A DNA stretch of 32,000 nucleotides from Tannockella kyphosi (GCF_021054785.1 NZ_CP088239.1:1200001-1232000), one strand, 5' to 3'. Positions 10,998 through 26,746 are shown, numbered from the stretch's first letter. Program-made: numbers and translations. Notes: generated by a model not told the origin, from the letters alone.

Positions 10998-11684
10998 TTA
11001 TAAGAATGAGAATAATGAGAAACTACTCATTAAGCTACTAATATAATTCATTACAATGGTACTAAATAACCATGCTCCAACAATAACAGAAGTAATTGTA
11101 ATTGCCGATGCAACATTATTTCTACCTCTTAGTTCACTACGAATAATTTCATTTGTATATAATAACCAAAGCACTAAACCTGCCACATAGACAACACTCA
11201 TTAATGTTGCTGATAAATAAGAACAGATAGCTCCGATTAGTTGTAAACAAGTAATAGGTAAATGAGCTAATCCCATTTTTGCTACCAAACTTAATAAGTA
11301 ATCTTTATCATGTTTTTTAGTAGCAATAGCAATACCACCAACATAAAGTACGACTGACATTATAATCAAACACCCTAGTATTACTGCAGCTCCTGATTTT
11401 ATTGATGATCCATAATCACCTAAATTAATCAAGAAACAAGATAAAATAGAAACTGCTAATGCTCCTCCACCAACTATTAATGATTCTTTTAAATCACTTG
11501 ATTTTATAGAACGAGTAACACTATATGGATTTTTTAAAACTCCTAAAGCTATTCTTTTAAATTTTTCAACTGGTACTTCTGGAGTAGCAGGCTCTGCTAC
11601 TTCATTACAACAAGCTTTACATGATTCACATTGACAAACACCATCAACTAATAATTCTCCACAATATTTACAATATTTTTTCAT
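10998..11684 (-). CDS. zinc-ribbon domain-containing polytopic membrane protein
   Basis: N-terminal YCKYCG...CQCESCKACC, then about five hydrophobic segments. GGGGAGAG RBS. Confidence 0.7.
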   Translation of the reverse strand: MKKYCKYCGELLVDGVCQCESCKACCNEVAEPATPEVPVEKFKRIALGVLKNPYSVTRSIKSSDLKESLIVGGGALAVSILSCFLINLGDYGSSIKSGAAVILGCLIIMSVVLYVGGIAIATKKHDKDYLLSLVAKMGLAHLPITCLQLIGAICSYLSATLMSVVYVAGLVLWLLYTNEIIRSELRGRNNVASAITITSVIVGAWLFSTIVMNYISSLMSSFSLFSFL

Positions 11685-11700: not shown

Positions 11701-13671
11701 CTATTCTACTTCTGCGCCACAGGCACAACAATAAACACTATCACTATCAATTTCTTGTCCACATTCTTCACAATACATTGTATCTAATACTTCTTCTTGT
11801 ACTGTTTCTTGCATACCTTCTTGAACTTCTTGTACTTCTTGCACACCTTCTTGCACTTCTTGAGTTACTTCTTGTTCTTCAATAGCAGTTGGTTTCTTTG
11901 AACCCAACATTCCTTTTTTCTTAGCAATAAATAATCCACCAGCAATGACTCCAACAATAGCAAGATAAATTATAACAGCAAAGATATTTGTATAAGTTCC
12001 AGTATAACTAGCAGTTCCACTTAATCCACTAAATTCTTCTGTAAAATTACTTCCTTCAATTACTGCATTCGAACTAGTTCCTAATAATAAACTATATAAA
12101 CTACTTAAATCACTATCATAATCTTCAAGTTCTTCCTGTGATGCAAATAAACCTAAATCAGCAGTATAAGTTAATACAAAATCATCATTACGATAATCAA
12201 CAATCTCGTAATAATAGAAATAATCACTAAATACAAATTCTTTTGTTAAAGAAAATAATCCACCTTCATCACTATATACAAAACTATCTCCTTCTCCAAA
12301 TAAGTAATTACTAGAAGCAATAATTTCTTCTTGTGTTCCAGTTTGAGTAATAATTATTTGTAATTGATCATCTTTTTCCTTTGTATCAATGTCATATCCT
12401 GTTACATCTTGTTCAACTAAATTACCTTCATCATCATATTCAGGATAAACACCTGCTTCTAAACTAGCAACAATTGAATCAATCTTTTCATCTTCAGGAA
12501 TACCATCTAAATAAATAGTAGTTGTTCTAGTAATATCACTAGAAAACATTGAATTATCTAAATGTACATCCATTTTAGCAACATAATATACATGTTCTAA
12601 ACTATAGTTAACTAATTCCACTTCATCATTAATATAACTATCAAGAATTAAATAATATCCATCATCATTTTGTTCACAATAAGCAACATTTGATCCAGTA
12701 TAATTACTAAATTCATATTCTTCATCATAATGAACCCAATAATATAAGTCTGTACTTCCTGATGTATCACTAAACATACCAAAAGCTAATCCTTCTTTTA
12801 GTGTATTAGCATCTACAAAAACACTACTAGAATCTTCTGTAAGTTCGATATAAGCAGCTTCATTATCTAAGAATGCAGCAGTTATACTTGCTAGATCTTC
12901 TAACGTAGTACTTTCTATTTCTAAAACAAATGTTTTAGAAGATGTTCCTTCTACCCATTGTCCTGATGCTCCATCAGGTACTAAATCTTCAAAATGTTGA
13001 ATAATTTCTTCTTCATTTAATGATAATGCAGCATTTGTAATTTCTACTTCAACAGTACGTACATATTCATCTAATGAAATAATGTCTGTATAGAATGTAA
13101 ATGATTCAATAGAAACATATTCCATTGTATCTACATCGATTGTATCTGATCCACTATAAGAGTTTTCACCAACAATAACAGTAGATGTACCTATTTCAAA
13201 GACATAACTTGTTTGAGATGATGTAATTAAACCTGCATCATATAAAGCAGTAGGCATCCATGAAAGTAAATCTGTAGTAGAAAAACTTTCTGTTACTTTC
13301 ATACCTGTTGTTAAAGGATTTTCAGCCTCTAAAATAACAATCGATTCATCCTCCCCAGTAATCGATTCTACTTGTAATTCATAATCTTCAATTGACTCAA
13401 AAGATAACACTACTTCATAAGACACAGTTTCTTCGTCATATGTAATTGATAAACTAGCTGGTGCAGTAGCATTAATAACAGTATTAATATCTTCCATCGT
13501 ACCATCAAATTCATCTGCTACAACATCCTGGTCAACCACAACATACATCACACGTGATCCACTCATGTCCTCATTGAATGTTAACTCCGTATTTACCACA
13601 GATGCATCACTACATCCACATATCATTACAATAAGCATTAACGTGGCAAAAACACTTAAAATTTTCTTCAT
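11701..13671 (-). CDS. putative lipoprotein with a large acidic ectodomain, C-terminal TM and cytoplasmic zinc ribbon
   Basis: Start set at the ATG at 13671 (GGGAGAG RBS), giving MKKILSVFATLMLIVMICGC, a lipobox-like signal. C-terminal TM IFAVIIYLAIVGVIAGGLFIA, then a QEV-rich repeat and YCEECG...CCACG. Confidence 0.7.
   Translation of the reverse strand: MKKILSVFATLMLIVMICGCSDASVVNTELTFNEDMSGSRVMYVVVDQDVVADEFDGTMEDINTVINATAPASLSITYDEETVSYEVVLSFESIEDYELQVESITGEDESIVILEAENPLTTGMKVTESFSTTDLLSWMPTALYDAGLITSSQTSYVFEIGTSTVIVGENSYSGSDTIDVDTMEYVSIESFTFYTDIISLDEYVRTVEVEITNAALSLNEEEIIQHFEDLVPDGASGQWVEGTSSKTFVLEIESTTLEDLASITAAFLDNEAAYIELTEDSSSVFVDANTLKEGLAFGMFSDTSGSTDLYYWVHYDEEYEFSNYTGSNVAYCEQNDDGYYLILDSYINDEVELVNYSLEHVYYVAKMDVHLDNSMFSSDITRTTTIYLDGIPEDEKIDSIVASLEAGVYPEYDDEGNLVEQDVTGYDIDTKEKDDQLQIIITQTGTQEEIIASSNYLFGEGDSFVYSDEGGLFSLTKEFVFSDYFYYYEIVDYRNDDFVLTYTADLGLFASQEELEDYDSDLSSLYSLLLGTSSNAVIEGSNFTEEFSGLSGTASYTGTYTNIFAVIIYLAIVGVIAGGLFIAKKKGMLGSKKPTAIEEQEVTQEVQEGVQEVQEVQEGMQETVQEEVLDTMYCEECGQEIDSDSVYCCACGAEVE
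11791..11880 (-). repeat. in-frame low-complexity repeat encoding EEQEVTQEVQEGVQEVQEVQEGMQETVQEE
   Basis: Reiterated CAAGAAG(T/G)N units, read directly. Confidence 0.7.
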
Positions 13672-13783
13672 TTCTCTCTCCCTTTCTAAAATATTAATGA
13701 TAATTAAATAATCCATCATCACCATATTTTAACCATAAATATACCATAATTATCTACCATAAAGCTGATAAAATCAAGCATTA

Positions 13784-14752
13784 TTATGATTGTATAGAAT
13801 TTGTTGCAACAAATTCTACTTTTAACAATATAAAAGTTTCTACTTCTTTTAATAAAACAAATAACTTAGCTCTTTCTTCAAATTCCATTCTTTCTTCAGG
13901 CAATGGACTAGACTTTAAATCATCCATTAATAAATATAACTTCTCTAACAATAATTCACCCGTATTATCTTGGTGAAATGATTGTGCTACTTCTTCTAAT
14001 AAATCAGAAACTTGTTTTGCAGTAATTGGGGCACTATGCATCGTATCAATTCTTTGATGCATGGCATATAAAACATGAAATTGTTTTTCTCTCATTTCAA
14101 GATATTCATTGTCTTTTCGATCAACATTGGATAATTGGTTCATATAGTTCGTTTCTGCTATGTTTTTAGCAATACGCAACGAATATTCCAAATCATGAAA
14201 ACACTGTCCTCCATTACTAGGAAACTGCTTATCAACGATTCTAAGTGACATACGATGTAAAATCTCTTTCATTTGTTGATCTGTTTCTTCTTTCATTTTT
14301 GTTATATAAGCATCATCCTTATGTAGATGTGCATTAACAAACATTGCCAAGCTAATTCCTATCAAAAACAATAAAATTTCATTCCCTATATTTTGTGTAT
14401 TCATAGAACTATGAATAAAATGAGAAATTAATACAGAATCAACTGCCATTGCACTTTTCCATTGGAAATGTTGACATACAACAATAAACAATAACAAGTA
14501 GATATAAAAAGAAAGATACCCATAACCAACTATTTCAAAACACAAAAAAGCAATAACTAAAGCAACTATAAAAGCTATCAAACGTTGACTTGCTGTTGCA
14601 ATCGTTTCTTTCTTTGTCGGTGCTACTGACAAAATAGCAACAACTCCTGCTGATACAGGATAATCTAATTGTAAATAATTAGCACATACAATCGATAAAA
14701 TAGCTGCAAAAGCTATTTTTAATGCATTAACATATTTTTGATTTATATTCAT
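13784..14752 (-). CDS. aromatic acid exporter (ArAE_1 / YgaE-like) family membrane protein
   Basis: 322 aa. N-terminal half has ~4-5 TM segments (KIAFAAILSIV...GVVAILSV...TASQRLIAFIVALVIAF). The soluble helical C-terminal half is typical of this family, from memory. Confidence 0.6.
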   Translation of the reverse strand: MNINQKYVNALKIAFAAILSIVCANYLQLDYPVSAGVVAILSVAPTKKETIATASQRLIAFIVALVIAFLCFEIVGYGYLSFYIYLLLFIVVCQHFQWKSAMAVDSVLISHFIHSSMNTQNIGNEILLFLIGISLAMFVNAHLHKDDAYITKMKEETDQQMKEILHRMSLRIVDKQFPSNGGQCFHDLEYSLRIAKNIAETNYMNQLSNVDRKDNEYLEMREKQFHVLYAMHQRIDTMHSAPITAKQVSDLLEEVAQSFHQDNTGELLLEKLYLLMDDLKSSPLPEERMEFEERAKLFVLLKEVETFILLKVEFVATNSIQS

Positions 14753-14858: not shown

Positions 14859-15190
14859 AATTAATTGAAATAGTTTCCTACATCCCGTTGTTTTATTAGT
14901 AGACATCAAGTGGTATCTTCTCTATTCTAATAACAAAACATGTATTTACTATTCAATAATGATAGCTATTGTTGCCCATTAACTAGTGTTTATTAAGTCC
15001 ATCGAAAAGGGGAGGAGATAGTCTTAATAAAATAAAAACCAACTACATACACATTGATTAACAATGTCTGTGCAGCTGGCTAACTTGTAATGTAAGTCCC
15101 TATAGTTTTGTGTCACCACCTCACGATGGTTTTACCGATGTATTTGATTTTACTAGGTCCGTTTGTATTATTATTGCGGGCCCTATCACA
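14859..15190 (-). promoter_or_regulatory. unclassified ~330-nt leader / candidate cis-regulatory RNA (riboswitch- or attenuator-like)
   Basis: Bounded by a good promoter (15196-15223) and the terminator (14824-14858). No convincing ORF. Locally more G+C-rich segments (GGGCCCGC, GAGGTGGTG, CTCCTCCCC). Possible helices: ACATTG/CAATGT, and CCATCG (about 15122-15127) with CGATGG (about 14999-15004). Confidence 0.35.
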
Positions 15191-18429: not shown

Positions 18430-20202
18430 TTACTTCTTTAAATTACTAATTTGTTCTTGAATTTCTAATAATTCCATCCATCGTTCACTTAACTTCTCTA
18501 TTGTTTCTTCTAATAAAGTTCTTTTAGATGATAATTCATCTAATTTACTAAAATTATTCGTTGTTTCTTGCATTTGTTGATCTATTTGTTCTAATTCTAA
18601 TTCTTTGGTTGCAATTAATTGTTCCATACCCTCTAATTCTTGTTTTTCTTTCATTGAAAGCTTTGGTATATTTTGACGTTGCAATTGTTTTTCAATAGCA
18701 TAACGTTTTGCTCCATCCCCTTTTTTACTTTCAGGTTTTTGATCTAACTCTAAATACTGACTATAACCCCCATTTACAACTGTAATTTGTTTATCTTTAA
18801 AAACAAAAACACGCTCACAAATACGATCTAAAAAATAACGATCATGACAAACTACAATAACAATACCAGGAAAGGTATCTAAATAGTCTTCTAAAATAGT
18901 TAAAGTCAAAATATCTAAATCATTTGTTGGTTCATCAAATAACAATACATTTGGTACTTGGATTAAAACCTTTAATAAATTAAGTCTTCTTTTTTGTCCT
19001 CCAGATAACCTACTAATCTTAGTTTGTTGCAAAGAAGAATCAAATAAAAATCTTTCACACATCGTTCTTGCATTTAATCTACCATCATTTGTTTCTAAAT
19101 CATCACTCGTATCTTTAATGTAGTCAATCACTTTCATATCTTCTATTAAATCATCATTTTGTTGTTTAAAATAACCTAATTTTACAGTTTCTCCTAATAC
19201 TATTTGACCATTCGTTGGTTCTAAAGCACCAGCTATTAATTTAATTAATGTAGATTTACCACTACCATTAATACCTAATATTCCAATTCGATCTTGTCTA
19301 GTACATGTATAAGAAAAGTTTGAAAATAATTCCTTTGTACCAAATGCCATGGATACATTATCAAAAATAATTGTTTTTTTACCTAATCTTTGATGAACAT
19401 CCATCATTTCTACTGATTTATTTTCTTCTATTCTTTCGATACTACTTAGTTGTTCAAAACGTTCTAAACGATCTTTACTTTTTGTTGATCTAGCTTGTAC
19501 TCCAGCACGTACCCACTCAATTTCTTTTTTTAAGAATAAATCTCTTTTTCTTTGTGTACTAAATAATTCCATTTCTCTTTTTTCTTTTTGTTCTAAATAT
19601 TGGGTATAATTACCTGGATACTCGATTAATTCTTTTCTACTAATTTCATATATTTTCGTTATAATTCGATTTAAGAAATAACGATCATGACTTACCATTA
19701 ATATTGCTTTATTATATTTGATTAAATATCTTTCTAAATATTCTATCATCATACTATCTAAATGATTGGTTGGTTCATCTAAGATTAATAAGTCACATGG
19801 TGTTAATAGCGTGATAGCTAACGCTACTCTTTTTTGTTGCCCTCCTGATAATTGTCCAATCAACTGATCATAATCATCAATTCCTAATCTATTTAACATT
19901 GCTTTTACTTCATAGTCTGGTAATTTCTTTTCATCGATATCTTGATATACTTGTTGCATCACTGTTTTGCTTTCATCAAAATCAGGATGTTGAGGAAGAT
20001 AACTAATTGTTGTATTTCCATTTTTAATAATAGTCCCAGTAACTGGTTCTAATCCAGCTATCACCTTTAAAAAAGTGGACTTTCCAGTTCCATTAACACC
20101 TAGCAGAGCTATTTTATCTTGTTCTTCAATCGTAAAAGAAGCTTGATTGAATAATTGTTTATCGCCTAATTCTTTGGTAATGCTTGCACTTGATAATAAC
20201 AT
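18430..20202 (-). CDS. ABC-F family ATPase (two ABC domains, no TM, C-terminal coiled coil)
   Basis: Walker A GVNGTGKST and GINGSGKST. Signatures LSGGQQKR and LSGGQKRR. Walker B LLILDEPTN and VLLFDEPTN. C-terminal E/K/Q/L-rich tail. Confidence 0.85.
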   Translation of the reverse strand: MLLSSASITKELGDKQLFNQASFTIEEQDKIALLGVNGTGKSTFLKVIAGLEPVTGTIIKNGNTTISYLPQHPDFDESKTVMQQVYQDIDEKKLPDYEVKAMLNRLGIDDYDQLIGQLSGGQQKRVALAITLLTPCDLLILDEPTNHLDSMMIEYLERYLIKYNKAILMVSHDRYFLNRIITKIYEISRKELIEYPGNYTQYLEQKEKREMELFSTQRKRDLFLKKEIEWVRAGVQARSTKSKDRLERFEQLSSIERIEENKSVEMMDVHQRLGKKTIIFDNVSMAFGTKELFSNFSYTCTRQDRIGILGINGSGKSTLIKLIAGALEPTNGQIVLGETVKLGYFKQQNDDLIEDMKVIDYIKDTSDDLETNDGRLNARTMCERFLFDSSLQQTKISRLSGGQKRRLNLLKVLIQVPNVLLFDEPTNDLDILTLTILEDYLDTFPGIVIVVCHDRYFLDRICERVFVFKDKQITVVNGGYSQYLELDQKPESKKGDGAKRYAIEKQLQRQNIPKLSMKEKQELEGMEQLIATKELELEQIDQQMQETTNNFSKLDELSSKRTLLEETIEKLSERWMELLEIQEQISNLKK

Positions 20203-20254
20203 AATAATCTCCTTCCATGGGATTCGTTTATATTATATAAGTAAATTTAAAAAA

Positions 20255-20285
20255 AATCTATACAAAAACCACTCATTGAGTGGTT
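20255..20285 (-). terminator. candidate terminator at the end of the ATP-grasp operon
   Basis: On the minus strand, AACCACTC-AAT-GAGTGGTT followed by TTTGTAT..TTTTTTTT. Overlaps the stop codon at 20284-20286. Confidence 0.45.
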
Positions 20286-21219
20286 ATAAGTCTGGTGCTA
20301 TTTTAAATACTGCAGTATTCGCATACATTTTACTTTCATTTCTAGCAAATAAGATAGTCCCTTCATCAGATGATACTACTCTCCCTATTACATGTCCTTC
20401 AAAAGCATCAATTACTTCTGCAAGTACTTGGTTTTTATAAACTCTATCCCCAACTTTTACAAAGCTATGATAAAAGCCAGCTTTTTTAGAACGAATGGTA
20501 ACAATATCTTGACTACTAATTTGTTTTGAAATATATCCCTCATGTCCTTTGTAACTAATAATTCCTTGTTTTGATAAAAAACTAAGAATTGCATCAATTG
20601 CTTTCATCGCACTTTTATGATCTACTTCATCCGTTGTAGTGGTATAGATTGAAAAACTTAATGTATCCCATACTTGCCAATTATAATTTAAAGTCGCTGT
20701 ATCATAAGGACGAGGTTGATGAGCAATAACATACGGCATTCCAAAATCAGCTGCTAAATTTAATAACTCTTGATTGGGTTTATCGGCTATATTCATAACT
20801 CGAACATGTGGTAAAAAGTTACCTGGCATATAAAAAGAAGCAAGTTGCATACCATATTGATAATCTTTAATATTATCAAATAGCCCTGCTGCAATACGTT
20901 GGGTTGTTTCACCTTGATCATATCCTGGAAACATGCGATTGATATCCGTATTATCAATTCCCCAAAAACGTTTCTTTGTATTCAAAGAATACGTGTTTAC
21001 ACTAGGAACTACTAAAATCCCTTTTTTAATTAAACCTTGTTTTTCTAAACTTTTTAAACGCTCTATCAATTTTGCACAAACATATAACTGTTGATTTTCA
21101 TTCCCTCTAGTACTCCCAACAATACAAGCTGATTTTTCATTGGTACCAAATTGATAACCCACAATACGAAAATCATCTCGATAAAGACCTGTCATTTCAA
21201 ATAAAATTTTCTTTTCCAT
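20284..21219 (-). CDS. AstE/AspA (succinylglutamate desuccinylase/aspartoacylase, M14-like) family paralog with degenerate metal site
   Basis: 311 aa. Aligns by eye to the upstream paralog (NRMFPG vs NRIFPG). It has RGNE instead of HGDE (Arg codon at 21106-21108) and Ala where the third ligand His is expected. Confidence 0.7.
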   Translation of the reverse strand: MEKKILFEMTGLYRDDFRIVGYQFGTNEKSACIVGSTRGNENQQLYVCAKLIERLKSLEKQGLIKKGILVVPSVNTYSLNTKKRFWGIDNTDINRMFPGYDQGETTQRIAAGLFDNIKDYQYGMQLASFYMPGNFLPHVRVMNIADKPNQELLNLAADFGMPYVIAHQPRPYDTATLNYNWQVWDTLSFSIYTTTTDEVDHKSAMKAIDAILSFLSKQGIISYKGHEGYISKQISSQDIVTIRSKKAGFYHSFVKVGDRVYKNQVLAEVIDAFEGHVIGRVVSSDEGTILFARNESKMYANTAVFKIAPDL

Positions 21220-22181
21220 TATCGTACCTCTTGATACACTGCTTCTTTTAAAATACGTCCCATTAAAGAGCCTTCACTAACTACAGGATATTCACGAGTC
21301 GTAAACAACCATCCATTTCCAGGAGCTTGAATTATCGCTAATACTTGACCACTTAATGGATTTACAATATTACCAATCACTTCGTCTTTCCAAACATAAC
21401 TACCATGTTCTTTTTCTTTTATAAAAATACCAGAAACTGGAGCATTAAGAAACAAAACATCATCATTTCCATCAGAAATAATAGGTTTACGAATATTTCT
21501 TATTTTTTTATCATCATAAATACTTAATAAGTTCATTAAATTAAAAATCCCATCTAACAATTGATCACCATACCTTTTAGTAATACGCATACCAACACCC
21601 ATTTCAACTACAATAGTTGGTGTATTTAAAACATTTAAACTATGTGCAAAAGTCGATTCTAATACTGTACTAGCTCCATGTACCCATATAAAATCAACAT
21701 TCGCATTATTTGCATAACCCAATAACATATCTTTATGCAATTGATTAATTCTTATTTGTGGAACTTCCGTTAAAAAGATATTACTAGCATGAATATCAAT
21801 ACATAAATCAGATCCTTGTACATCTTCTATTATTTTAGCAGCAATATATTCATTCATATCACCATCGATACGTCCTGGAAAAATACGATTCATGTCTAAA
21901 TCAAAAGCTGGTATTCCTCGACTAATAGAATCAATTCCAAATGGATTTAATGCCGGATAAATATCCACAATACCCTGTAATTGATCTATATTTTCTTGAA
22001 TAATGGAAGATAATTGATAGCACACATATTGTCCTTCTAATTCATCTCCATGAATTCCTGTAACAATACTAATCCTTTTTAAACCTTCTATATTTGTTAC
22101 ACCTTTTGGTATTAAACGCATCTTTTTAACCGATAGATTTTCATCTACTGGTAACTCTACTTGTGTTACTATGATCTCCAT
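21219..22181 (-). CDS. AstE/AspA (M14-like) family zinc deacylase/carboxypeptidase
   Basis: 320 aa. GIHGDELEG places H44 at 22050-22052 and E47 at 22041-22043. Also NRIFPG and IDIHAS (H131). The stop overlaps the next ATG (TAATG). Confidence 0.75.
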   Translation of the reverse strand: MEIIVTQVELPVDENLSVKKMRLIPKGVTNIEGLKRISIVTGIHGDELEGQYVCYQLSSIIQENIDQLQGIVDIYPALNPFGIDSISRGIPAFDLDMNRIFPGRIDGDMNEYIAAKIIEDVQGSDLCIDIHASNIFLTEVPQIRINQLHKDMLLGYANNANVDFIWVHGASTVLESTFAHSLNVLNTPTIVVEMGVGMRITKRYGDQLLDGIFNLMNLLSIYDDKKIRNIRKPIISDGNDDVLFLNAPVSGIFIKEKEHGSYVWKDEVIGNIVNPLSGQVLAIIQAPGNGWLFTTREYPVVSEGSLMGRILKEAVYQEVR

Positions 22182-22192
22182 ACATACTCCCC

Positions 22193-23005
22193 TTATTTAT
22201 AAGCCTCATAAACAATAACTGAAATTGTTTGATGTTGAGTTCCTCCGCCTAAAAAAGCTCCTTGATTAATAATACAATCTAAATAATCTCGACCATTTGA
22301 TATTTTTATATGATCTTCATGAACTAATATATTGTTAGTAGGATCAATACCTATCCAATAACCAACATCCTGACAATTTTCATCTACTTCAAATATTTCT
22401 ACCCAGGCATGACTATAACCCTCTCCCACTAACAAACCAACTACATACCTTGCTGGTATTCCTGCCATTTTACAAAGCGCAATAAAAATATGAGCATAAT
22501 CTTGACATACACCACATCCTAAAGACATAGCTTGCTCCGCTGTTGTCGTGATATTGGTAACATCTTTTTTATATTCGTAACTTTTTTGTAATTGTTCCAT
22601 TATGATCATTGCTTTTTGAAAATTAGTAGATCTCTTTCCAAATTGCAATGATGCAAAGAAAGTTTGTAAAGCATGTCCTGGCTTTGTGATATTTGTAGGG
22701 TATTTATAAAACCCAACTTTATAAACATCTTCATAAATACGTGCTTCATTTCTACCTGTGTATGCTGTTCCTATTACATCAAAATAGAATTTTTGATGTG
22801 CCTCTGGTGCATGCCCCATAATACAAGCATTATGAAAAGAATCATTACTTTCACTAAGGTATTGATTAGGATAAACATCTACTTTTAAGTTTTCAATTTT
22901 TTGATTTGTATCACTTAATGGTATACATTTTAATGTAAAATGATGATTTTGGACATCATCATCAAACATTATGTCCATGTGATAATGAAAGTATAACTGC
23001 TTCAT
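22193..23005 (-). CDS. transglutaminase-like cysteine protease family protein (with an N-terminal Bact_transglu_N-like segment)
   Basis: 270 aa. Catalytic triad candidates: C167 in GVCQDYAH (22505-22507), H199 in YSHAWVE, D221 in GIDPTN. Confidence 0.8.
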   Translation of the reverse strand: MKQLYFHYHMDIMFDDDVQNHHFTLKCIPLSDTNQKIENLKVDVYPNQYLSESNDSFHNACIMGHAPEAHQKFYFDVIGTAYTGRNEARIYEDVYKVGFYKYPTNITKPGHALQTFFASLQFGKRSTNFQKAMIIMEQLQKSYEYKKDVTNITTTAEQAMSLGCGVCQDYAHIFIALCKMAGIPARYVVGLLVGEGYSHAWVEIFEVDENCQDVGYWIGIDPTNNILVHEDHIKISNGRDYLDCIINQGAFLGGGTQHQTISVIVYEAYK

Positions 23006-23017
23006 AATAATGCCCTT

Positions 23018-23680
23018 CTAAATTAGATTTTCTACTACCTTTATTAATTGAACATAATCAATTGGATTTGACTTAGTTAATTCAATAATTTGGTCAATAT
23101 CTTCTTGATGATAAGCTAATTTTGTTTGTTCTATACGTCTTTGTAAACGATATGCTTCTATTTTTATTTCTTCTTGACTAGCATGTAGACGAGTATATAA
23201 ACTTAATTTTTCAATACGTTTCCCTGTTTTCATTAGATTTCTAGCATTACGATTAACCATTATTTCATTAACCATTCCCCAAAATGCCATTAAATCATCC
23301 ATCACTTTTTGTAATTCAATCAATGGTGCTAAAGAAAGTAATGCTTTATCCATATCATAAATAGCAAGTTGAATATAAGATAATGTATCGCTCCCTATTT
23401 CTTCTCTTAATACAATCGCATTATCATATGCTCTAGTTAAATTACTAGCAATAGAATTAGTATCGGTTTGATCAAAACAATAACGTTTACAAAAATCTTC
23501 TGTAGAAGTATAAATATTTGGAATATCTAAATTCATACAAAACTCTTTATAATGATTAAAATCAGTATCAATCATTATATCATAACTATCTGAAAATAAC
23601 TTTAATGTTTCATACACACGTTGTGTGTATCTTCCTAACCAAATTAATTGGTCTGAATGTTCTAACGAGATAATACCCAT
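23018..23680 (-). CDS. alpha-E domain protein (short form)
   Basis: 220 aa. The N-terminal LEHSDQLIWLGRYTQRVYETLKLF matches the alpha-E signature I recall (..WMGRY.ERAE.). Overlaps the ATP-grasp gene by 19 nt. Confidence 0.7.
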   Translation of the reverse strand: MGIISLEHSDQLIWLGRYTQRVYETLKLFSDSYDIMIDTDFNHYKEFCMNLDIPNIYTSTEDFCKRYCFDQTDTNSIASNLTRAYDNAIVLREEIGSDTLSYIQLAIYDMDKALLSLAPLIELQKVMDDLMAFWGMVNEIMVNRNARNLMKTGKRIEKLSLYTRLHASQEEIKIEAYRLQRRIEQTKLAYHQEDIDQIIELTKSNPIDYVQLIKVVENLI

Positions 23681-24981
23681 GTGTCCTTGAAACCTCCCCC
23701 TTGTGATGAATTAACAATAAATGAATTAGGATCTCTAGTAAAACGAGTTAATCCACTTTTCCATACCATTGGCTCTTCTGCCATTAAAACAAATGCTCGA
23801 AGATCCGCTTTTCTTTTAACAATAATACCATTATCCACAATATCCTCATCTAAAAAATCAATTACTTCTTGTGCAATAAACCTTCTAGGTTCTGCCTTCA
23901 TTAAAGTAATAAAACTTTCTTTTTGATCAGGTGTCATTTTACTACCAAAGACAACACCATATCCTCCTGCTTCTGCTACATCCTTTAATACCAAATTATC
24001 AAAGTTTTCTAATACATAATCCATATCTTTTTGATAAAAAGGTAAATAAGTTGGCGCATTTTGTAAAATAGCCTTTTCATTTAAATAATATTCTATCATT
24101 TTAGGAACAAAATAATAAATTCCTTTATCATCTGCTACTCCATTACCTGGTGCATTTAAAATAGCTACATTTCCTTTTCTAAACACATCATACAAATGAG
24201 GTATTCCAATTAATGATTCTGGATTAAACGTCATAGGATCCAAATATTCATCTGAAATACGACGATAAACAGCCCCTACTTTTTGTTTATTCCCAGTATA
24301 ATCAATAAAATATAAATAATCATTCTCTACCACCAATTCATTACCTGTTGCAAGTCTTGAACCAGTTTGTTCAGCAAGATAAGAATGTTCAAAATAAGCA
24401 GCATTATATCTACCTGGTGTTAAAATAATATTTAAACCCCCAGTATTAGAATAATCCATCGTTGCCTTTAACATCTTTGCATAATCACGGTTATCTTCAA
24501 TTTGATTATCATGGAAAATACCAGGACATCCTCTTCTTGTTAACTTCCTAGCAATCATCGGATAAGATGCTCCTGAAGGAACTCGTAAATTATCTTCTAA
24601 AATATACCATTCTTTGTTTTTTCCTTGTACCAAATCAATTCCAGAAATATGACTATAAATACCTTTAGAAGGCATTACTTCTTCACACATTGGTAAATAA
24701 CCACTACATGAATAAATAAAATCCTCTGGTATAATATTATCCTTCACAATTTGTTTTTCATGATAAATATCTTTAATAAATAAATTTAATGCTTTCACCC
24801 TTTGTTTTAATCCTGCCTCCAAAACATCAAATTCATCTTTTGGAATAATACGAGGAATTGTATCAAAAGGAAACAATTGTTCAACAAACGTATTGTTTTT
24901 ATAAATACCAAACTTTACTCCATATCGGGCTAACAAATCATTAATAACCTCTTTTTTATTTAACAAGTCTTCATACAACAT
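23662..24981 (-). CDS. circularly permuted type 2 ATP-grasp protein (COG2308-like)
   Basis: 439 aa. FPFDTIPRIIPKDEFDVLEAGLKQRVKALNLFIKDIYHEKQIVKDNIIPEDFIY closely resembles the family N-terminal region as I recall it. GGGAGGA RBS. Confidence 0.75.
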   Translation of the reverse strand: MLYEDLLNKKEVINDLLARYGVKFGIYKNNTFVEQLFPFDTIPRIIPKDEFDVLEAGLKQRVKALNLFIKDIYHEKQIVKDNIIPEDFIYSCSGYLPMCEEVMPSKGIYSHISGIDLVQGKNKEWYILEDNLRVPSGASYPMIARKLTRRGCPGIFHDNQIEDNRDYAKMLKATMDYSNTGGLNIILTPGRYNAAYFEHSYLAEQTGSRLATGNELVVENDYLYFIDYTGNKQKVGAVYRRISDEYLDPMTFNPESLIGIPHLYDVFRKGNVAILNAPGNGVADDKGIYYFVPKMIEYYLNEKAILQNAPTYLPFYQKDMDYVLENFDNLVLKDVAEAGGYGVVFGSKMTPDQKESFITLMKAEPRRFIAQEVIDFLDEDIVDNGIIVKRKADLRAFVLMAEEPMVWKSGLTRFTRDPNSFIVNSSQGGGFKDTWVLSR

Positions 24982-25030
24982 AAAATTTCCTCCCTTGATA
25001 ATTTTTTATTATACTGACTGATTTTTAACA

Positions 25031-25059
25031 ATGATAGCATATCAAATATACCATGTCAA
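25031..25059 (-). promoter_or_regulatory. candidate sigma-A promoter of the ATP-grasp operon (TTGACA-17-TATCAT)
   Basis: On the minus strand, TTGACA is at 25054-25059 and TATCAT at 25031-25036. It lies just downstream of the Wadjet operon terminator. Confidence 0.5.
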
Positions 25060-25094
25060 CGAACATCCAACAAATAAAAATATTACTTTTTCAA

Positions 25095-25129
25095 ATAAAA
25101 AAATAAGTGAGGAAATTCCATCACTTATT
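25095..25129 (-). terminator. rho-independent terminator ending the Wadjet-like operon
   Basis: On the minus strand, AATAAGTGA-TGGAATTTCC-TCACTTATT followed by TTTTATTTG. Overlaps the stop codon of the 117-aa gene. Confidence 0.6.
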
Positions 25130-25474
25130 CATGTCAATTTCATATTTAGCAAGGACACCATTTCCCCTAGGATGTCCGTGTTCTTCACTCTTTGTTAGGG
25201 CTACTACCCCTAATTCTTTAAATAAAACTCCATCAATCATTGCTTTTTCTTGAAATTCTTCAATTGTTGCAAAAAACTGATCATCTAAATAAAGTCCTTT
25301 ATCTATTCTTTTTCCTTTTGCTACTTCATAACAATTCATCCCTACTCTATGTGTTTTTTCTTTGTATTCAAATGTTAAATTTTCTATCATTGTATCGTAC
25401 ATTCTATCTACTTCAAAAGCAGCAATAATCGCTTTTGCATCACAATATAGAGGGGCTTTTTTCTTAAAAAACAT
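25121..25474 (-). CDS. hypothetical 117-aa protein, fifth cistron of the Wadjet-like operon
   Basis: AAGGAG RBS. Starts 12 nt after the jetD stop with no intervening terminator. No family recognised. Confidence 0.65.
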   Translation of the reverse strand: MFFKKKAPLYCDAKAIIAAFEVDRMYDTMIENLTFEYKEKTHRVGMNCYEVAKGKRIDKGLYLDDQFFATIEEFQEKAMIDGVLFKELGVVALTKSEEHGHPRGNGVLAKYEIDMNK

Positions 25475-25486
25475 CTTTTTCTCCTT

Positions 25487-26746
25487 TTATTTTAATTTTT
25501 GTATGTATTTTTGATGTAATGCTTCTTGATAAGTAGCATACTTACATTGCTTTAAGGCATCACAAATAGGTAATAATTGATCATTTATGCATTTATCTAA
25601 CATCTTTAATCTTTTTTCACTAATCATTTTCGATGATAAATGTTGATAATAATTATCCGTTTCATAGTTCCATAAAGAAATAGTTGGATATCTAGTTAAT
25701 AATTTATCGGCAATCAATATTCCTTCAGGATCAAAATCACCTGCATAATAAATAGTTGCACTTGTTTTACTTAGAATATCTAACAATAAATATGCTGCTA
25801 AATTTAATTGCCCATAGGTACATATAAAAGCACAATCTTCCATATTATTTTGTTTTCCATGCAAACATAAATATCGAAACGTAGATGGATTTTCTAAAAT
25901 ATAAACTCGTTTAGGAACTATGATTTCTTTGATTTGACGAATATTATAAACTTGAATAATCCAAGGTTCATATAAGTCATACATTGCTTGCCATGCTAGA
26001 TGAATATCTTCCATCTTTGCACTTAAATGACAAATCATAACAAAGTTAGATACATCATTAGAAATAAGACCAGCTTGATAATATAAAAAATCTTTTTTTA
26101 TTATCTCATCCTCTTCATCAAAACCAAAGATATGTTCTAGAATGGAAATAAATAAATTTTGATATGCTAATCGATCTAAGAAATGAGGGTCTTTTAAATG
26201 ATTTTCTAAAAATTCAATTAGTAATTGAGTCTTTTGTTGGAAAACAGGAAGAACATTTATTGCATTAAATAAAGAAATCAAAGTATCTTTATCTTCTTTC
26301 CATAGTTTAAAAATATTGATAAAACTAGTTGGTTGACTAACTACCTTTTCTATAAAAGAATATATTGGTTGATTTTCATACATATCCAATAAATCTTCTA
26401 GAAAAGATAAATAACTTTCTTTTTCTTGCTTTTTGTTTTGTTTTTTAAAATAGAAAGGTGATCCCTTATGTAATTCTAACATTTTTACAAAATCCATCTC
26501 TTCATAATTACTTTTATCCAATGCTTTTTTTACTTTGTTAAAAGATATCTTCCATTCACTACCACCAGGTAGTGTTACCTGTAATAGTGCTGCAATAGAT
26601 TCCTTTTCATCATTTGATAAATCAACTAAAACAATAGAACCGCCTAAATATTCTAACTGTTCATATCTTTCTAACCATTTATCCAAAAAAACAGGAATAC
26701 CTGGTTTAGAGCTAGCATATTGCAAAAACTGCTCTTCTATAGCCAT
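25487..26746 (-). CDS. jetD: JetD-like Toprim nuclease subunit (TIGR02679 / DUF2399-like)
   Basis: 419 aa. Toprim Glu in YILENPSTF (E285 at 25892-25894) and DxD in YAGDFDPEG (25730-25738). Overlaps jetC by 10 nt. Confidence 0.75.
   Translation of the reverse strand: MAIEEQFLQYASSKPGIPVFLDKWLERYEQLEYLGGSIVLVDLSNDEKESIAALLQVTLPGGSEWKISFNKVKKALDKSNYEEMDFVKMLELHKGSPFYFKKQNKKQEKESYLSFLEDLLDMYENQPIYSFIEKVVSQPTSFINIFKLWKEDKDTLISLFNAINVLPVFQQKTQLLIEFLENHLKDPHFLDRLAYQNLFISILEHIFGFDEEDEIIKKDFLYYQAGLISNDVSNFVMICHLSAKMEDIHLAWQAMYDLYEPWIIQVYNIRQIKEIIVPKRVYILENPSTFRYLCLHGKQNNMEDCAFICTYGQLNLAAYLLLDILSKTSATIYYAGDFDPEGILIADKLLTRYPTISLWNYETDNYYQHLSSKMISEKRLKMLDKCINDQLLPICDALKQCKYATYQEALHQKYIQKLK

Follow-up and report, generated by a model that had tools for sequence, protein, structure and literature searches.

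What is the function of an operon in which three genes belong to one of the most widespread bacterial clusters without known chemistry, and two more come from a family of amidohydrolases? This question is raised by a locus of Tannockella kyphosi (Erysipelotrichales, Coprobacillaceae), which we analysed in a window of 32,000 nucleotides (nt), that is, the whole stretch NZ_CP088239.1:1200001-1232000 (GCF_021054785.1), from whose first letter all positions are counted. The three genes, referred to here as the triad, encode a circularly permuted (CP) ATP-grasp amidoligase, an Alpha-E protein and a transglutaminase-like cysteine hydrolase; the other two encode AstE/AspA-family proteins, which we call M14a and M14b. 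According to our analysis, this five-gene cassette would be a new variant of the known, uncharacterised triad, in which the hydrolase of the fourth slot, elsewhere the proteasome-like protein Anbu, is replaced by an active/inactive M14-like pair. Work on the Anbu form of the triad has stalled. The characterised members of the M14 family (DoeB, CphZ, AstE) have small N-acyl amino acids or dipeptides as substrates, which narrows the class of product to be expected and provides an enzyme that can be assayed. In addition, the module is abundant in gut Lachnospiraceae, and its product could therefore be relevant to how the microbiome handles nitrogen.

The five-gene operon and its relatives

Five open reading frames (ORFs) called on the window lie head to tail on the minus strand, from 24981 to 20284. 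In gene order they encode the ATP-grasp protein (23662-24981, 439 amino acids (aa); CP_ATPgrasp_2 4e-130, CP_ATPgrasp_1 3e-118), the Alpha-E protein (23018-23680, 220 aa; Alpha-E 5e-19), the transglutaminase-like protein (22193-23005, 270 aa; Transglut_core 2e-20, Bact_transglu_N 1.5e-7), M14a, a predicted DoeB-like zinc amidohydrolase of the AstE/AspA family (21219-22181, 320 aa; AstE_AspA_cat 1.3e-20), and M14b, a degenerate paralogue with the AstE/AspA fold (20284-21219, 311 aa; AstE_AspA_cat 3.6e-12). All these Pfam matches score above the curated cut-offs, and the hidden Markov model searches thus returned the five families, AstE_AspA_cat twice, that the initial annotation had assigned by reading the sequence. 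The successive junctions are a 19-nt overlap, between the start of the Alpha-E gene and the stop region of the ATP-grasp gene, a 12-nt gap, an 11-nt gap and a 1-nt overlap. The best promoter-like site within 20000-25600 is a sigma-70-type promoter at 25031-25059 (-), about 50 nt 5' of the first start codon, with TTGACA, a 17-nt spacer and a TG-extended TATCAT (11 of 12 matches). The sole terminator-like site detected in the same interval is a candidate intrinsic terminator at 20257-20285 (-), which reads AACCACTC-AAT-GAGTGGTT followed by a T-rich tail (TTTGTATAGA); its 8-base-pair (bp) stem, at 20285-20267, starts inside the stop codon of M14b. Since they share a strand, adjoin or overlap each other closely and lie between a single promoter and a single terminator, the five genes are predicted to form a single autonomous operon, and the ORF, promoter and terminator calls agree in every coordinate with the transcription unit that had been proposed beforehand. 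The region is uniform at 28-32% GC, with no sign in base composition of recent horizontal acquisition. Operator motifs for CodY, GlnR/TnrA, cre, Zur, Fur and ArgR 5' of the cassette were no better than those in shuffled sequence.

It should be noted that the same arrangement is a common feature of related genomes. A scan with the ATP-grasp protein of one genome per GTDB species gave at least 592 relatives, and the best 80 loci, mostly of Lachnospiraceae and other Clostridia from gut metagenome-assembled genomes, were analysed by tblastn and blastp. Every locus whose contig was long enough presented the five genes in the same order and on the same strand. The initial annotation had named beforehand a lack of co-occurrence elsewhere as one of the points that would speak against the module; the complete set was found in 65 of the 80 loci, with median junctions of -19, +12, +12 and -8 nt, and independent gene calls with precomputed Pfam labels present the same arrangement. 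The five-gene arrangement is not due to chance. Identity across the 80 loci is 74-83% for the ATP-grasp protein, 55-75% for M14a, 45-63% for M14b, 45-61% for the Alpha-E protein and 29-55% for the transglutaminase-like protein. The far higher conservation of the ATP-grasp protein compared with its partners, visible also in its match (4e-103) to a betaproteobacterial structure, fits a universal substrate. No small ORF (40-120 aa) within 800 nt of either end of the cassette was conserved in more than three loci; judged in this way, the cassette does not appear to carry the precursor or tag gene of a graspetide-type cluster, i.e. one for ATP-grasp ribosomally synthesized and post-translationally modified peptides.

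Together with Anbu, the triad constitutes the so-called "Anbu operon", which is said to figure also in Iyer et al. 2009 and Fuchs et al. 2017. It was described by Valas and Bourne in 2008 (PMC3235984). In the literature the triad has been read as a tagging or peptide-synthesis system, and structural papers up to 2018 state that its function is unconfirmed (PMC5666114, PMC6376114). The ATP-grasp protein of the Yersinia triad releases phosphate from ATP, and for Anbu neither peptidase activity nor complex formation was observed (PMC6376114). A mycobacterial homologue, Rv2411c, was tested in a 2026 preprint only for the synthesis of a conjugate of gamma-aminobutyric acid and trehalose (GABA-trehalose), with a negative result. 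Full-text literature searches to 2026 gave no characterisation of the triad, in agreement with the earlier view that it has no established function.

The cassette had been regarded from the start as an extension of this triad, and the comparison bears this out, since families, order and strand are the same. The COG2308, COG2307 and COG1305 families are common to the cassette and the Anbu operon, with a hydrolase gene after the triad in both. The ATP-grasp protein is 42-44% identical to plasmid-borne copies of other phyla, and the transglutaminase-like protein shares the architecture of a Bact_transglu_N domain plus core, catalytic triad included. In the Ralstonia comparator, the order is likewise ATP-grasp, Alpha-E (316 aa), transglutaminase and Proteasome-family protein. 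However, no Anbu or Proteasome-family fourth gene is present here: genes 4 and 5 match AstE_AspA_cat only, and by position the M14 pair would occupy the slot held in Proteobacteria by the proteasome-like gene. The other differences are the Alpha-E protein, of 220 aa instead of about 315 and alignable only over its first 100 residues or so, and the hosts, which here are gut Clostridia and Erysipelotrichales. We also considered whether this variant is carried by plasmids and rejected it, as the plasmid matches were all below 44% identity and corresponded to classical triads.

Regarding the individual triad proteins, the ATP-grasp protein scores 434.5 bits against a Pfam cut-off of 32, covers profile positions 1-373 of 374, and is 74-84% identical to the Clostridia and Lachnospiraceae homologues among the matches listed. 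It aligns end to end (4e-103) with PDB entry 3N6X of Methylobacillus, a structural-genomics entry titled "putative glutathionylspermidine synthase". The Alpha-E protein scores 69.5 bits against a cut-off of 20.8 over profile positions 7-168 of 294 only, and hhalign could align it to the canonical 316-aa Alpha-E only over residues 8-107. Its homologues are likewise short throughout the clade (218-225 aa), and it is a truncated, divergent form. Its AlphaFold2 (AF2) model (predicted local distance difference test, pLDDT, 89.6) is an all-helical bundle that matched no fold relative in the PDB (best E 0.3). About 50 of its residues are invariant, many of them charged, which suggests a specific catalytic or binding role. 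The transglutaminase-like protein matches PDB 3ISR, a putative cysteine protease (3.6e-12), and possesses the intact C/H/D triad that had been reported for it, namely C167/H199/D221, at least 95% conserved in 73 homologues.

An intact and a degenerate AstE/AspA-fold protein

The initial annotation had described the last two genes as two M14-like deacylases. The AstE/AspA fold holds for both; the catalytic assignment holds for M14a and fails for M14b. In M14a, the zinc ligands are H44 and E47 (H44-x-x-E47) and H131 (DIHAS), the catalytic residue is E193 (VVEMG) and the carboxylate clamp is N98-R99, and these six residues are invariant in 40-73 homologues. The family profile of M14a aligns over nearly its full length with 2QJ8, 3CDX, 3NA6 and DoeB (6TWM/6TWL), with the catalytic motifs in register. 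Judging by these residues, M14a is predicted to be an intact zinc enzyme, and it has in common with DoeB, CphZ, AstE and aspartoacylase the H-E-H zinc triad, the catalytic Glu, the N-R clamp and the two-domain fold. DoeB is the N-acetyl-2,4-diaminobutyrate deacetylase and CphZ a cyanophycin dipeptide hydrolase. Unlike true members of these groups, the two M14 proteins reach only 44.6 and 37.8 bits with the NCBIfam model ectoine_eutE, whose cut-off is 402.7, and about 15 bits with the models for aspartoacylase and AstE; neither is an orthologue of any characterised enzyme.

In M14b, unlike in the AstE/AspA enzymes, the metal site and the catalytic Glu are missing while the fold is kept: R38 stands in place of the first zinc His, the second His corresponds to a gap, and the position of the catalytic Glu falls within a 10-residue deletion. 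M14b nevertheless aligns to M14a at 99.7% probability. Its AF2 model (pLDDT 89.2) presents the full two-domain fold, for which the best Foldseek matches were 3CDX, CphZ (8EIP/8EIN), 2QJ8 and DoeB (E about 1e-20 to 1e-22, template-modelling score about 0.75-0.80). Both M14a and M14b retain the C-terminal domain which restricts access in the AstE/AspA family. The degenerate site is invariant in 40 homologues, as are the motifs RGNE-QQ, KRFW-DNTDINRMFPGY, GETTQRIA and DT-TLNYNWQ-W. A search with the M14b profile against 1.84 billion representatives gave 161 matches at E of at most 1e-30; the top representatives and the high-scoring full-length matches carry the same degenerate site. More distant relatives with the signature RFWP-D-TDINRMFPGY-GETTQRIA retain HGDE and D-HSSN, and since these share the signature and keep the zinc motifs, the loss of the active site in M14b would be a derived condition.

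M14b also keeps the invariant carboxylate-binding residues R84/N94/R95, whose counterparts in CphZ are R102/N112/R113 (PMC9974463). Because these residues persist and CphZ is a dimer, we infer that M14b is probably a pseudo-enzyme, a non-catalytic partner of M14a or else a reader. In the literature examined we found no description of an obligate pair of an active and an inactive AstE/AspA gene. As a separate observation, eight of the distant relatives that keep HGDE and D-HSSN (P0439, P0463, P0466, P0477, P0478, P0495, P0498 and P0506 of alignment A6) have Gln or another residue at the position of the M14a catalytic Glu (e.g. ILQGG, VIQAG); they may represent another non-canonical branch of the family or a shifted alignment.

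Metabolic neighbours, leader hairpin and a proposed function

When the flanking ORFs of the 80 loci were clustered, three families stood out as the sole recurrent neighbours among 240 flanking proteins: an ArAE_1/FUSC_2-HAD fusion membrane protein (14 loci), an NADP-type isocitrate dehydrogenase (9 loci) and a citrate synthase (6 loci). One or more of them directly adjoin the cassette on the same strand in 12 of the 80 loci, in at least six arrangements. In L024, L045, L050 and L077, citrate synthase, isocitrate dehydrogenase and ArAE/HAD genes precede the cassette (L045:5851-14622), and in L080 (9992-18578) the same three genes follow it and overlap each other. Isocitrate dehydrogenase and ArAE/HAD follow the cassette in L052 and L068, isocitrate dehydrogenase precedes it in L066, and ArAE/HAD follows it in L023 and L042 and precedes it in L002. 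In L006 (3551-12237), citrate synthase and isocitrate dehydrogenase are inserted between the Alpha-E and transglutaminase-like genes, within a tight run of at least eight genes. The persistence of the linkage through such rearrangements speaks for a functional connection with the production of 2-oxoglutarate, the precursor of glutamate, and this operon wiring in a subset of the loci points to substrates of the 2-oxoglutarate/glutamate family. No flanking regulator or transporter was conserved in more than 14 of the 80 loci. The window has an ArAE gene of its own (13784-14752), which we considered as a possible case of this linkage and rejected, as it is not detectably similar to the ArAE/HAD fusion adjoining other cassettes.

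A second feature of the relatives is a hairpin 5' of the ATP-grasp gene, for example at L035:9938-9984, L079:9915-9961, L001:7960-8004 and L045:9919-9965. It consists of a conserved base (AAAGGCG...CGCCTTT), a variable upper stem and then a T-run, with a stem typically of 12-19 bp. Among 35 aligned hairpins 95.3% of the cells pair and 7 of 14 pairs are changed on both sides, values of pairing and covariation reached by none of 500 shuffles; the pattern used to select the hairpins included the base of the stem but none of the covarying pairs. With a covariance model, 64 of the 80 loci, among them the closest relative, L001, were found to have the hairpin no more than about 400 nt 5' of the gene, against about 14 weaker matches elsewhere, several of them before citrate synthase or ArAE/HAD. 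The same type of hairpin lies 5' of citrate synthase in L024, L045, L050 and L077. In six loci the distance from hairpin to start codon is 18-32 nt, ribosome-binding site included, and -35/-10-like boxes are present upstream of the hairpin; this short gap and these boxes imply that the hairpin is part of the transcribed leader. We read it as a promoter-proximal attenuator of the terminator type, which makes it a possible reporter for the inducing signal. No Rfam family corresponds to it. With the covariance model no hairpin was found at 24982-25100 of the window, which has the strong promoter directly before the ATP-grasp gene. Another observation on these leaders is a GC-rich element (approximately GTGCAG-GGAA-ATGCCGC...GCGGCGAGTAGG) between hairpin and start codon in L007 (9671-10001, where it is present twice), L048, L053, L064 and L027, which may be a repeat or a further structured RNA.

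With these elements we propose that the cassette carries out an ATP-driven cycle of ligation and hydrolysis on a small amino-acid-derived amide, tied to the glutamate and nitrogen economy of the cell, a proposal to which we give about an even chance of being right. The ATP-grasp protein, probably with the translationally coupled Alpha-E protein, would activate a carboxylate with ATP and join it to an amino group. The operon does not encode the substrate, which would thus be a common cellular compound. The transglutaminase-like Cys-His-Asp hydrolase would cut or transfer the amide or isopeptide bond of the ligase product, and M14a, as a DoeB/CphZ-like zinc N-acyl-amino-acid hydrolase, would free the amino acid from the resulting small unit, with the catalytically dead M14b as a binding or regulatory partner. 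The most likely substrate is a small amino-acid-derived amide or short isopeptide of the glutamate family, in which case the cassette would be a module for nitrogen and carbon economy. The small-molecule role is suggested by those relatives of M14a and M14b whose function is known (DoeB, CphZ on beta-Asp-Arg, AstE), which free amino acids from nitrogen-rich compounds. In Proteobacteria, expression of the triads depends on sigma-54/NtrC or responds to nitrogen limitation (PMC5491218, PMC5666114, PMC6376114): the Anbu operon is induced under nitrogen limitation (PMC5666114, PMC6376114), and the DUF404/407, DUF403 and transglutaminase genes of Burkholderia show 6- to 9-fold NtrC-dependent expression (PMC5491218).

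Cyanophycin metabolism follows a comparable logic, in which an ATP-grasp-type ligase builds, a peptidase releases units and an AstE/AspA-fold enzyme splits them, also in the service of nitrogen economy; CphZ is there an AstE/AspA-fold enzyme that performs the last step of a pathway begun by an ATP-grasp-type polymerase (PMC9974463). The likeness is one of logic only. The cassette has neither a CphA-type synthetase nor an S51 cyanophycinase, and its ATP-grasp protein is circularly permuted and of unrelated architecture. Another point of comparison is glutathionylspermidine synthetase/amidase, in which an ATP-dependent amide synthetase is combined with a papain-like Cys-His amidase for hydrolysis of the very bond that the synthetase makes. 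The deposited name of 3N6X, a structural-genomics guess, recalls this enzyme; unlike in it, the domains are here separate proteins.

The role in ligating and removing peptide tags that the initial annotation had put forward is retained as a serious rival explanation, possible though somewhat unlikely in our estimation: a small-molecule role in glutamate and nitrogen metabolism agrees better with the DoeB/CphZ relatives of M14a and with the repeated association with citrate synthase and isocitrate dehydrogenase genes. Under tagging, the ATP-grasp protein would attach one amino acid or a short peptide to one or more target proteins, either at the C-terminal carboxylate or at that of a side chain, the transglutaminase-like protein and M14a would erase the tag and M14b would read it, by analogy with M14 carboxypeptidases acting against TTLL tubulin ligases, or with RimK-type systems. 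This agrees with the literature reading of the triad (PMC5666114, PMC6376114), with the proteasome-like protein found elsewhere in the fourth slot, and with M14b itself, which lacks catalysis and keeps the carboxylate-binding R/N/R expected of a reader. It is also favoured by an operon of a Vibrio europaeus plasmid (NZ_CP064859.1; L081:6904-9294) that contains rimK, an AstE_AspA_cat gene, whose product is the best plasmid match to M14b, and a retropepsin-like Zn_protease gene. As in our cassette, an ATP-grasp amidoligase is there co-encoded with an AstE/AspA-fold hydrolase and a second peptidase; RimK, annotated as ligating glutamate to ribosomal protein S6, is however not circularly permuted, and the operon has neither an Alpha-E nor a transglutaminase-like protein. 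Against tagging, no candidate gene for a tag or target was found among ORFs of at least 40 aa in or beside the cassette in the 80 loci, and complexes and peptidase activity were sought in the Anbu operon without success (PMC6376114). Furthermore, the cited AstE/AspA members of known substrate act on small molecules, the access-restricting C-terminal domain is kept in both M14 proteins, and the link to citrate synthase and isocitrate dehydrogenase would be left unexplained.

The hydrolases could also be the working part of the cassette, if it served to salvage an external amide nutrient such as a peptide-like compound or polyamide of the gut; the ATP-grasp protein would then re-ligate or activate an intermediate, or perform an ATP-dependent ring-opening or carboxylation-like step. 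We consider this doubtful. DoeB, CphZ and AstE are all catabolic, and induction by nitrogen limitation in Proteobacteria fits scavenging. Within 7 kilobases of the cassette there are ORFs resembling polar-amino-acid ATP-binding cassette (ABC) transporters, judged by sequence only (an ATPase in 11 loci, a permease in 8 and a binding protein in 6), and a Peptidase_C26/GATase protein lies immediately beside the cassette in 4-6 cases. The conserved part of the cassette, however, includes no transporter or secreted enzyme, and no signal peptide was seen when the five sequences were read by eye. ATP-grasp enzymes are overwhelmingly ligases, and the ATP-grasp protein is the most conserved component, which is unexpected for an accessory role.

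Returning to the ligate-and-hydrolyse cycle, several considerations weigh against it. Unless regulated, an operon that encodes both the making and the hydrolysis of a bond would run a futile cycle, and the link to citrate synthase and isocitrate dehydrogenase is present in only 15% of the loci, in a few lineages and not in this window. The data on nitrogen regulation come from Proteobacteria with the Anbu form. The AstE/AspA-like gene beside rimK argues that such enzymes can serve protein-tag systems, and the comparative-genomics prediction of Iyer et al. 2009 reportedly favours peptide tagging of proteins. The case for an M14a-M14b heteromer consists of strict co-occurrence and the CphZ dimer, and we infer the chemistry of all five proteins throughout. 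A more specific form of the cycle, speculative and in our opinion improbable, is that the cassette makes and recycles a hitherto undescribed amide derived from glutamate or citrate, which would serve as a chelator or as a buffer of nitrogen and carbon. An N-carboxyacyl-glutamate resembling citryl-glutamate and a short oligomer with gamma or beta linkages are candidates; ArAE/HAD would handle the carboxylate, and the hairpin, as a new kind of terminator close to the promoter, would gate expression. If true, this would be the first biochemical function for the whole triad, Anbu operon included.

The adjacent Wadjet operon and other features of the window

About 500 nt upstream of the cassette lies a type II Wadjet system on the minus strand, with very strong PADLOC matches for JetB2 (31866-30760), JetC2 (30747-26737) and JetD2 (26746-25487); JetA presumably starts beyond the end of the window. 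This neighbourhood had led to the speculation that a conflict or defence role is conceivable. The adjacency in this window is the only argument for a cassette functionally tied to Wadjet, and the idea did not survive the comparison with other genomes. By tblastn, JetB/C/D homologues were found in 0 of the 80 related loci, and PADLOC gave no match for the five cassette proteins. The 130 immediate neighbours of the cassettes are spread over 156 different Pfam families, the second neighbours being as diverse, and PADLOC matched the immediate neighbours only to generic ABC ATPases and to six defence families seen once each. In a phage collection of 50,697 records only four weak or dubious matches appeared, two of them to "Acinetobacter phage" records of MD-2021a; one of these phage records is an "UNVERIFIED" unannotated faecal scaffold with many long overlapping ORFs, like high-GC bacterial DNA. 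In addition, the cassette has its own promoter and terminator, and an ATP-grasp identity of 74-83% over the 80 loci is unlike that of fast-evolving defence genes. The Wadjet adjacency is a peculiarity of this genome, produced by chance, and there is no enrichment for defence; we regard a defence module tied to Wadjet as highly improbable, so that a false lead, the cassette as a Wadjet accessory, can be removed.

Between JetD and the cassette promoter there is a 117-aa ORF (25121-25474, -), followed by a weak hairpin with a T-run; its product matched no Pfam or PADLOC family. Downstream of the cassette, the neighbours are an ABC-F ATPase and AzlCD. Further along the window, a c-di-GMP-I (cyclic diguanosine monophosphate) riboswitch aptamer was detected at 15068-15146 (-), with 48.2 bits against a gathering cut-off of 35, downstream of a FecR/Listeria-Bacteroides-repeat gene and about 300 nt upstream of the ArAE-family gene. 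Two ORFs without Pfam match, 11701-13725 (-, 674 aa) and 10998-11684 (-, 228 aa), separate the ArAE gene from a set of type IV pilus genes at 10847-4408 (PilB-like, prepilin peptidase, PilC-like and pilin), which lies further downstream of the riboswitch.

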